From: a plasmid
Strand: one strand, 5' to 3'
Length of the DNA: 64,000 bases
Assembly (NCBI RefSeq): GCF_058153355.1
Contig: NZ_JBLWLY010000002.1
A program made the translations under genes and the position numbers. The notes below the pieces were generated by a model that had not been told where the DNA came from, did no database searches, and saw only the letters and a program-made list of their open reading frames with translations. The first letter of the stretch is position 1. Each line of letters opens with the position of its first letter. Below, piece after piece: positions 33,419-34,426 of this stretch.

Positions 33419-34426
33419 GTTCTGTACTAACGCCTCTTTGTTTACTGTTTCTGTTTTTCTAAAATCAACGAGTAAATACAATTTTGTATTTGTTTTATTG
33501 CAACGTTACTATAAGATTAACCGTTCTGAATTTATACTTCACATTTTTACTTAACGACTAATTATACATAATTAGTCGTTACCATCTTGATTTTTAAAAA
33601 TATATTTCTGCTTTGTTAAAGCTTGTGCTGAAAAACACCAGGCTTCATATTTAGTGAGGACAAACAGTTTATTTAAAATTCTTTGTTTTCTCCTAAATCT
33701 ATTTTCAATAAGATAATTGTGAACCACGGTTTAATATAGTGTTTAGTTGATATCAGGTTGTGTCTATAATTAATTTTATTATCTAATGGTTAACTTTATC
33801 AAGTTTTATAAGGAAATCTAACCTCATTGAAAGACACAAAACACTATGTGCTCTTTATACTCGTATAATTCGAGATGAATTATTTCAGCATTCTGATATT
33901 GGAACTATAATTGGTGTATTTGTGTTTTTTTATAAAAGCACTTATCCTTTATATTAACCATTTTTATAAGTGAGAACATATCATGCGATTTTTAGTTAAA
34001 TATTGATATATTCTGGTATCTTCCACCAGAGAGTATATTTTAATAATAGTATGATGTTTTATATGCATAAAACATCAAAAACATTAACTTAGTTATTAGT
34101 TGCTTATTGGATTTAAGTATTAGAATGACATTCTCCAGATTATATGTAATGAACTGAAAAATACAGCATTATGTTACTCTACGGTAGAGGAGACAGAAAT
34201 CCCTTATTCAAAGGGTGAACCTTAATTGGACTAATTCATAAATTGCATGTAATGAACATCCGCAAATGCATATAGATCTACGTCTAGCATGGCCATGCCG
34301 CCAGTTTATCAGTTTTATATGAACGCATCCTGTTTGCAAGGTTTCCGTTGTTTTGACTCTGACGGGGAGGTTGCAGCTTTATAGCTGGCTTTTTGCAGCC
34401 ATAAAGCTGCTAGCCCCTATGTAATT

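Follow-up and report, generated by a model that had tools for sequence, protein, structure and literature searches.

Why should the gene for a fimbrial adhesin be preceded by a kilobase of DNA that seems to encode nothing? The question arises at positions 33419-34426 of the window, by which we mean the whole 64,000-nucleotide stretch of plasmid DNA analysed here. A preliminary description had noted that this region was very AT-rich and non-coding and that it ended in an inverted repeat beside an IS3 end, and had proposed that it might be a silenced regulatory region or might hold small genes or RNAs. We find an ordinary rearrangement scar and a spacer, with no new gene, RNA or kind of feature. 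Taken as a whole, we read the region as the end of a dead ISEc11-family element plus non-coding foreign AT-rich DNA beside a rearranged adhesin gene, the DNA being likely kept quiet by H-NS. We put the probability of this reading at roughly 55%.

A large virulence plasmid of the IncF type, belonging to the Escherichia/Shigella group, is the source of the window. The segment from 1.9 to 20.7 kb matches Shigella sonnei pINV at 98% and includes ospD3, ipaH7.8 and ospC1; traI, traD and an IncFII repA lie within 48-64 kb. The middle of the window is a patchwork of insertion sequences surrounding a fimbrial chaperone-usher operon (37699-44929).

The region itself consists of two parts, a unique AT-rich tract (33419-34310) and the remnant of an insertion sequence (34311-34426). 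The AT content of the first part is well above the replicon average: at 28.4% GC, positions 33419-34312 compare with 48.4% for the window as a whole and form its most GC-poor part, and a scan in 894-nt windows places the GC minimum of the 64 kb at 33362-34255 (27.1%). Positions 34311-34426, which bear the hairpin, have 41-46% GC and are separate from the AT-rich tract. The earlier characterization as about 1 kb of very AT-rich DNA is thus accurate for 33419-34310 (28% GC) and wrong for the last 116 bases, which belong to the insertion sequence fragment.

No open reading frame of 60 codons or more lies inside the region, just as first described. The internal maximum is 51 amino acids (33572..33727, minus strand, GTG start), and the only longer frame that touches the region is an upstream extension of the adhesin reading frame, started at TTG and reaching to 33481. 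Yet this lack of reading frames is uninformative by itself and is the chance expectation at such a composition, because shuffled sequences of the same composition (n=1000) give similar results: their longest reading frame averages 55 amino acids, and in 68% of them no frame reaches 60.

The hairpin and the ISEc11 family

ISEc11, reportedly described by Prosseda in 2006, belongs to the IS1111 group of the IS110 family and has a seekRNA-guided DEDD transposase. In Siddiquee 2024 (PMC11187229) its target sequence is given as GTGAAAATACTG and its 3' non-coding region is found to encode the target-selecting seekRNA.

The second part of our region (34311..34426, minus strand) represents the terminal ~116 bp of the right end of such an element, with 89% identity to ISEc11-family ends. 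When complete E. coli genomes were searched, matches were confined to 34310-34426 (~89%) and to the IS3 end. An element in the ospC4-carrying (pINV-type) E. coli plasmid NZ_CP065614.1, labelled 'IS110-like element ISEc11 family transposase' by NCBI, has a right end that shares 89.1% identity with the fragment over 117 nt, and relatives inserted in prophage tail genes share 88.8%. In each of two chromosomes the match covers the final 114 bp of a ~1448-bp IS110-family element that sits between lambdoid tail genes, at the end downstream of the transposase gene.

The details of this end are those of ISEc11. The subterminal inverted repeat ATGAACGCATCC is matched exactly at 34319..34330 (no strand assigned) and has no second exact copy in the window. 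The complete elements of L001 and L010 (the L numbers are our locus labels) carry ATGAACGCATCC inverted near both ends; the left-end copy is missing from the window, where the element is truncated. Two terminal bases follow ATGAACGCATCC, as they do in ISEc11, and then comes a flank starting AAAACTG. The flank of the ISEc11 copy starts AAATACTG, the right part of the published target, and the window flank resembles it.

What the fragment lacks is equally telling. In ISEc11 the target-complementary strings CAGTATTTT and GTGAAAATA occur just 5' of the point at which the window fragment starts, and neither of these seekRNA guide segments is present in 34311-34426. The DEDD (IS110-family) transposase gene is absent as well, its place being taken by an IS3-like element from 34427 and an IS66 remnant beyond. 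With neither transposase gene nor guide segments, the 11% diverged fragment is a remnant, clearly derived from the ISEc11 family, rather than a member element. Since the left end is missing too, it cannot move or guide anything.

The terminal inverted repeat reported beside the IS3 end is genuine. Its arms, 34366-34387 and 34396-34417, are 82% complementary and include a perfect 10-bp core (34374-34383 and 34402-34411). The stem-loop (34366..34417, minus strand) has a z-score of -4.0 both as folded DNA and as minus-strand RNA, and in sliding windows the fold is stronger on the minus strand, which is the sense strand of the insertion sequence (z -4.25 versus -2.29). Elements of the ISEc11 family share this stem-loop in their 3' non-coding region, 3' of the seekRNA guide segments: four copies keep it, and one stem pair has changed on both sides, from C-G in ISEc11 to U-A here (read by eye from the alignment). 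The hairpin to which attention had been drawn does exist, then, but by homology we identify it as the distal stem-loop of a dead ISEc11-family fragment and not as part of the upstream region of the adhesin gene.

The neighbouring element (34427..35661, minus strand), which cuts off the ISEc11-family fragment, is IS3-like and degenerate, recognizable by its broken transposase reading frames and its terminal repeats (TGATCTTACCCA and TGGGTAAGATCA). The IS3-type terminal repeat TGATCTTACCCAC starts at 34427. No 3-bp target duplication flanks the element, the triplets being ATT and ACA, and its far (right) flank is an IS66-family remnant. Because the triplets differ and an IS66 remnant occupies the far side, the truncation was the work of an IS3-associated deletion or recombination and not of a simple insertion.

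The tract may show a further trace of ISEc11. The string ATGTAATGAAC, with which the left end of ISEc11 begins, has its only two exact copies in the window at 34144-34154 and 34247-34257 (plus strand), a weak resemblance. Local alignment of the whole tract with ISEc11 gives a second remnant no support, its scores of 23-26 comparing with a shuffle mean of 23 and a maximum of 32.

An adhesin gene apart from its operon

The region had been placed upstream of an adhesin-like gene, and rightly so. An intact gene of 334 codons (32414..33418, minus strand) encodes a tip adhesin of the PapG/SfpG/PixG class, hereafter G, with a match to Pfam MrpH_C (E = 1.2e-8), a C-terminal domain of fimbrial adhesins. 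An exhaustive profile search yielded 37 relatives, the closest 36% identical; tblastn matches to PixG and SfpG are weak. The closest relative is the terminal adhesin of operon L004, to which the protein is 34-36% identical over its full length. The gene itself has one exact copy elsewhere, on a contig of 1389 bp. Upstream of its ATG a GAGG is found at 14 nt, a poor spacing.

The chaperone-usher operon nearby (37699..44929, plus strand; assigned with Pfam and NCBIfam) reads A-H-usher-chaperone-J-K-E-F and has no terminal adhesin gene. It is collinear gene by gene with L004, in which the order is major pilin, second pilin, usher, chaperone, PapJ, two pilins and adhesin. Identities are 43% for A, 54% for H, 62% for the usher, 63% for the chaperone, 34% for J, 32% for K and 41% for F, and the displaced adhesin fits this series at 34%. 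We therefore identify 32414..33418, from its sequence and from this collinearity, as the terminal adhesin gene (PapG/SfpG class) that the operon is missing.

In Pap/Sfp/Pix-type operons G follows F on the same strand. The L004 adhesin gene is last in its operon, 16 bp after the preceding pilin gene, and the relative in L012 follows its pilin gene by 44 bp, both on the same strand as the pilin genes. The closest E. coli plasmid operons are L014 and L013, with F proteins 75% and 64% identical to ours; in both, a spacer of ~160 bp of AT-rich non-coding DNA comes after F, with an adhesin-sized gene beyond it. We regard these genes provisionally as G genes: the L013 candidate has no blastp match to the window adhesin at E<=1e-3, and the L014 candidate is 26% identical over 146 residues, with a 143-aa gene between it and the spacer. 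The window has the same two-domain G-class adhesin and a collinear operon, but its G is oppositely oriented to the operon and sits upstream of gene A at a distance of 4.3 kb, behind 890 bp of unrelated DNA and three insertion sequence fragments. Similarity to all adhesin relatives ends at the adhesin start codon. Because the adhesin gene of homologous operons comes after the last pilin gene, in the same orientation and with a short spacer between them, the 890-bp tract is probably not the native control region of the adhesin gene. We infer that the two were joined by rearrangement.

Two copies of an 1849-bp composite, made of ISSso6 (IS110 family) and an IS66 fragment, lie nearby. Copy A (30509..32357, minus strand) has its left end 56 bp past the adhesin stop codon; copy B (44940..46788, plus strand) has its left end 10 bp past the stop codon of pilin gene F, at the site where the adhesin gene would be expected. 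The copies are 99.9% identical and inverted relative to each other. An initial view of the repeat as one long IS110-family element was abandoned, the repeat being in fact ISSso6 (~1.5 kb) with 326 bp from the end of an IS66 transposase gene.

Neither of the two models of the rearrangement that were tried reproduces the present junctions, and we adopt none. Homologous inversion between the composites does not bring F and G together, and replicative transposition calls for other insertion sequence ends than those at the junctions. The operon would formally be restored by one inversion that broke the DNA 10 bp past F and at the end of the tract nearest the adhesin gene. A search of the tract for the motif that flanks the other copy on the left gave a marginal match of 11/12 (33884-33895), on the wrong strand for the inversion model.

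The AT-rich tract

The AT-rich part (33419..34310, 28% GC, no strand assigned) is a new and unique sequence of an ordinary kind, delimited by its composition and by empty homology, Pfam, period-3 and Rfam tests. Megablast and distant-mode blastn found no relatives of 33419-34312 in 5,426 complete E. coli genomes, nor were there any in 72,556 PLSDB plasmids or 50,697 phage records, distant blastn included. Exact-pattern scans of GTDB species genomes and JGI metagenomes, with both palindromes described below and a 25-mer from the GC-richer right part, were empty in 4/4 cases. The sole other public trace is the 1389-bp contig, from the E. coli assembly GCA_043012465.1; it matches 32360-33748 at 100% identity and breaks off within the tract.

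Could the tract be what is left of a decayed gene or genes, such as a pilin gene, a YuaE-like gene or a regulator of the PapB/FaeA type? In the relatives, coding DNA stands immediately in front of the adhesin gene: a pilin gene (L004, L012), YuaE (L008) or a reverse transcriptase (L011). However, each frame of the tract holds 19-30 stop codons, a six-frame Pfam search at E<=10 gave no match, and no codon periodicity remains (period-3 z = -1.1, compared with +18.8 for the adhesin coding sequence and +7.2 for a pilin coding sequence). No PapB or FaeA signal was detected in any of the six frames. When the tract was compared by tblastx with six loci that have adhesin relatives, and by tblastx and blastn with L004-L012 and with the F-G spacers of L013/L014, matches fell inside the adhesin coding sequence only. 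Nor does long neutral decay of the locus sit well with the adhesin reading frame next door, which is fully intact. Decayed genes are an improbable source of the tract.

A small RNA or small protein, such as a type I toxin-antitoxin pair or a plasmid regulatory RNA, might also hide in DNA of this kind. Windows at the palindromes fold better than shuffled sequence, with z down to -4.8, and several hydrophobic reading frames of 20-51 codons exist. But low z-scores occur only at the DNA palindromes, where they are alike on both strands, and at the insertion sequence fragment; such strand-symmetric values point to symmetry of the DNA itself and speak against an oriented RNA. The putative 5' leader of the adhesin mRNA (206 nt) is not unusually structured (z = -0.8). 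Against Rfam 15 at E<=5 the tract has no real match, the best hits (E 2.9 and 4.3) being to unrelated families and far below gathering scores. As for peptides, short hydrophobic reading frames are expected at 28% GC, and the 51-codon frame, the longest inside 33419-34426, has neither a Shine-Dalgarno sequence upstream nor a homologue in the search made with it. The suggestion that the region holds small genes or RNAs is not borne out by these searches, and we consider a dedicated small product very improbable.

Two perfect palindromes are the only features of the tract that exceed chance. The first, TAACGACTAATTAT-AC-ATAATTAGTCGTTA, spans 30 bp (33552..33581, no strand assigned) with its centre ~148 nt upstream of the adhesin ATG. 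Its perfect 14-bp arms were reached in 0/1000 dinucleotide shuffles, the shuffle maximum being 12, and as a DNA hairpin it has -10.2 kcal/mol and z = -9.3. The second, TGATGTTTTAT-ATGC-ATAAAACATCA, spans 26 bp (34052..34077, no strand assigned) and has perfect 11-bp arms that 0.7% of shuffles matched and a DNA hairpin z of -5.3; an exact scan of metagenome contigs for it was empty. They are not canonical terminators, because no T-run follows either of them (for 33552-33581 both strands were checked). Regarding the tract as an inert spacer leaves these perfect palindromes unaccounted for, and they are candidate operators or RNA hairpins.

The palindromes bring us to the main rival of our reading, that the tract is a genuine control region in which a monocistronic adhesin gene has its own promoter and the palindromes serve as operators for a dimeric regulator or as hairpins in the 5' untranslated region. 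The adhesin gene would therefore be regulated separately from the operon. In keeping with this idea, the palindromes are exceptional when set against shuffled sequence, and 33552-33581 lies just downstream of a promoter-like TTAACA-18-AAAAAT (33619..33590, minus strand). The closer operon relatives also have their ~160-bp AT-rich non-coding spacers after F, and the adhesin reading frame is intact and full-length relative to its homologues. However, sigma-70-like sites are not enriched in the tract (5 found, 6.6 +/- 2.5 expected), and its three terminator-like matches are all weak. The palindromes turned up nowhere else in exact scans. The tract has no similarity to the F-G spacers of L013/L014, nor was a motif found that it shares with the operon's own upstream DNA, and no regulator gene is adjacent. 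Template-switch mutation can also create perfect palindromes in unconstrained DNA, and could have done so here. We hold a genuine control region to be unlikely. That the palindromes in particular are binding sites or RNA hairpins of a hitherto undescribed control module, giving the displaced adhesin gene an independent regulated promoter, seems to us very doubtful. If it were true, a pINV-type plasmid could switch its tip adhesin separately from the fibre of the neighbouring operon.

Fimbrial genes are often phase-variable and this adhesin is of a Pap/Mrp-like class, which invites the question whether the tract is an invertible promoter of the fimS/mrp type or a Dam/Lrp methylation switch of the Pap type. 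A Pap-type switch is marked by two GATC sites ~100 bp apart and by regulators of the papI/papB type; the fimS/mrp type is marked by well-matched inverted repeats flanking ~250-350 bp and by an adjacent tyrosine recombinase gene. The AT-rich tract has a single GATC, at 34275. Its inverted-repeat pairs at distances of 100-600 bp are only 71-92% complementary, which is the chance level (~1.6 such pairs expected by our own estimate), and there is neither a recombinase gene nor a papI/papB-like gene among the reading frames that adjoin the tract. A phase switch is barely conceivable. Like decayed genes and a small RNA or peptide, it has little support.

Silencing of a spacer and what it means

We return to the reading of the region as a dead insertion sequence end and a foreign spacer beside a rearranged adhesin gene. 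H-NS prefers AT-rich, horizontally acquired foreign DNA; its binding to AT-rich DNA was reportedly described by Navarre and by Lucchini in 2006. Because the tract has 28% GC and resides on an H-NS-governed virulence plasmid, coating by H-NS is to be expected, and the tract is probably bound and silenced by it. The proposal of a silenced regulatory region is plausible from the composition by itself.

The closest parallels are the H-NS-silenced upstream regions of pINV in Shigella and EIEC. They have the same long non-coding AT-rich stretch 5' of a foreign, low-GC virulence-type gene, and the plasmid of the window likewise carries the pINV effector genes ospD3, ipaH7.8 and ospC1. In icsP on pINV the VirB site is more than 1 kb upstream. 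The likeness extends to composition only. No inverted VirB box (ATTTCAGTATGAAAT-like) occurs in 33419-34426 within 3 mismatches, where isolated strings like a half-site are all that is seen (ATTTCA at 33882 and AAGGAAAT at 33810), and the high-affinity H-NS consensus TCGATAAATT is absent from the tract even at <=1 mismatch. A-tract phasing, taken as a sign of curvature, is not above chance in the tract, being no better than in 53% of shuffles. In contrast to the pINV regions, the juxtaposition of tract and adhesin gene appears to be secondary here, and silencing is a prediction.

An ISEc11-family element has lost its transposase gene and seekRNA segments by IS3-associated deletion or recombination. 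On our reading, a rearrangement driven by insertion sequences would have removed the adhesin gene from the 3' end of the operon at 37699-44929, and an AT-rich tract with no dedicated product would have ended up in front of it by chance. Coated by H-NS, in a filament predicted to run from about 32400 to 34300, the tract would be a transcriptionally quiet spacer. The adhesin gene would be left with neither the operon promoter nor its native ribosome-binding context, and would have to be expressed from chance promoters within the AT-rich DNA or through transcription reading in from the IS3/ISEc11 side; the IS3-like and ISEc11-family elements both point towards the gene. Barring such a promoter or read-through, the adhesin is probably expressed weakly or not at all.

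A conspicuous gene-free stretch of 1 kb is in this way explained as a rearrangement scar with foreign spacer DNA, and its hairpin as the tail of a known family of RNA-guided insertion sequences that has recently been well characterized. The neighbouring adhesin gene and operon are of more interest than the spacer. As a by-product of the analysis, the adhesin gene missing from the adjacent operon has been located, intact, almost unique in public data and cut off from the operon promoter, on a plasmid with Shigella-type invasion effector genes.

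The adhesin gene and its fimbrial operon

The orphan adhesin gene at 32414-33418 (-) is the missing terminal 'G' gene of the neighbouring chaperone-usher operon (A-H-usher-chaperone-J-K-E-F, 37699-44929, +). Its open reading frame is intact. The operon in the window is collinear, at 32-63% per gene, with that of L004, a locus where the operon ends in a relative of this adhesin.

The adhesin is nearly unique among public data, with one exact copy and a next relative that is only 36% identical. The sole other public copy is on a 1389-bp contig of GCA_043012465.1 that corresponds to window positions 32360-33748. 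One end of that contig is at the ISSso6 boundary and the other at 33748, within the AT-rich tract that adjoins the adhesin gene; the window has no repeat at this position. At 33748, either sequencing dropped out in DNA of 25% GC or the strain has a different junction there.

A distant relative of the adhesin (25% identical) is encoded at 1761-2681 of L011, a locus on a Logan contig (ERR13998522) with the gene order PapB, YuaE, unknown, reverse transcriptase, adhesin-like, FaeA. The 306-residue reverse transcriptase directly before the adhesin relative belongs to the defence-associated class RT_UG4 (PADLOC E = 1e-116). The window has nothing comparable.

Within the operon, the gap separating pilin gene E from pilin gene F appears to be a variable insertion point. 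It comprises 319 bp of AT-rich non-coding DNA in the window (44062-44380) and 260 bp of AT-rich non-coding DNA in plasmid pMEI252 (L013 3960-4219). A further related plasmid encodes at this position (L014 4019-5359) a 446-residue protein whose N-terminal domain is an FKBP-type PPIase domain.

Insertion-element remnants and possible traces in AT-rich DNA

The AT-rich tract (33419-34310) contains two exact copies of ATGTAATGAAC, at 34144-34154 and 34247-34257 (both +), identical to the sequence with which the left end of ISEc11 starts. Neither is more than 170 bp from the right-end remnant of the ISEc11 family (34311-34426, -), and the second is followed by ATCC, which matches the subterminal repeat with two bases removed. 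The likeness of ATGTAATGAAC to ISEc11 is not significant in whole-element alignment; the copies may be left over from earlier activity of an ISEc11-type element or may have arisen by chance.

The IS3-like element is separated from the IS630-like one by 35662-36443. An IS66-end remnant occupies the first ~110-180 bp of this interval, and the next 400 bp or so are again AT-rich (32-38% GC) and match nothing in E. coli genomes. The AT-rich part includes a VirB-box-like string (35997-36011, three mismatches), and an open reading frame of 106 codons with no assignment lies at 36237..36557 (-).

Plasmid make-up and the flanking composites

Fimbrial operons are unusual on pINV-type plasmids. Positions 1-25000 carry the Shigella-type effector genes ospD3, ipaH7.8 and ospC1 (98% to S. 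sonnei pINV), and positions 48000-64000 match the F-type transfer genes traI, traD and traX and an IncFII repA, at 92-95% identity with about 70-79% of the query covered. Both sets share one 64 kb window.

The fimbrial DNA is flanked by inverted 1849-bp composites that are 99.9% identical (30509-32357, -, and 44940-46788, +), each consisting of ISSso6 (IS110 family, about 1523 bp) joined to 326 bp of the end of an IS66 transposase gene. Both left ends adjoin fimbrial DNA, 56 bp past the adhesin gene and 10 bp past pilin gene F. The same composite occurs beside prophage DNA on an E. coli chromosome (L015). Together, the inverted pair and this chromosomal occurrence suggest that ISSso6 is located at the ends of IS66 and that the two composites can invert the intervening 12.6 kb.
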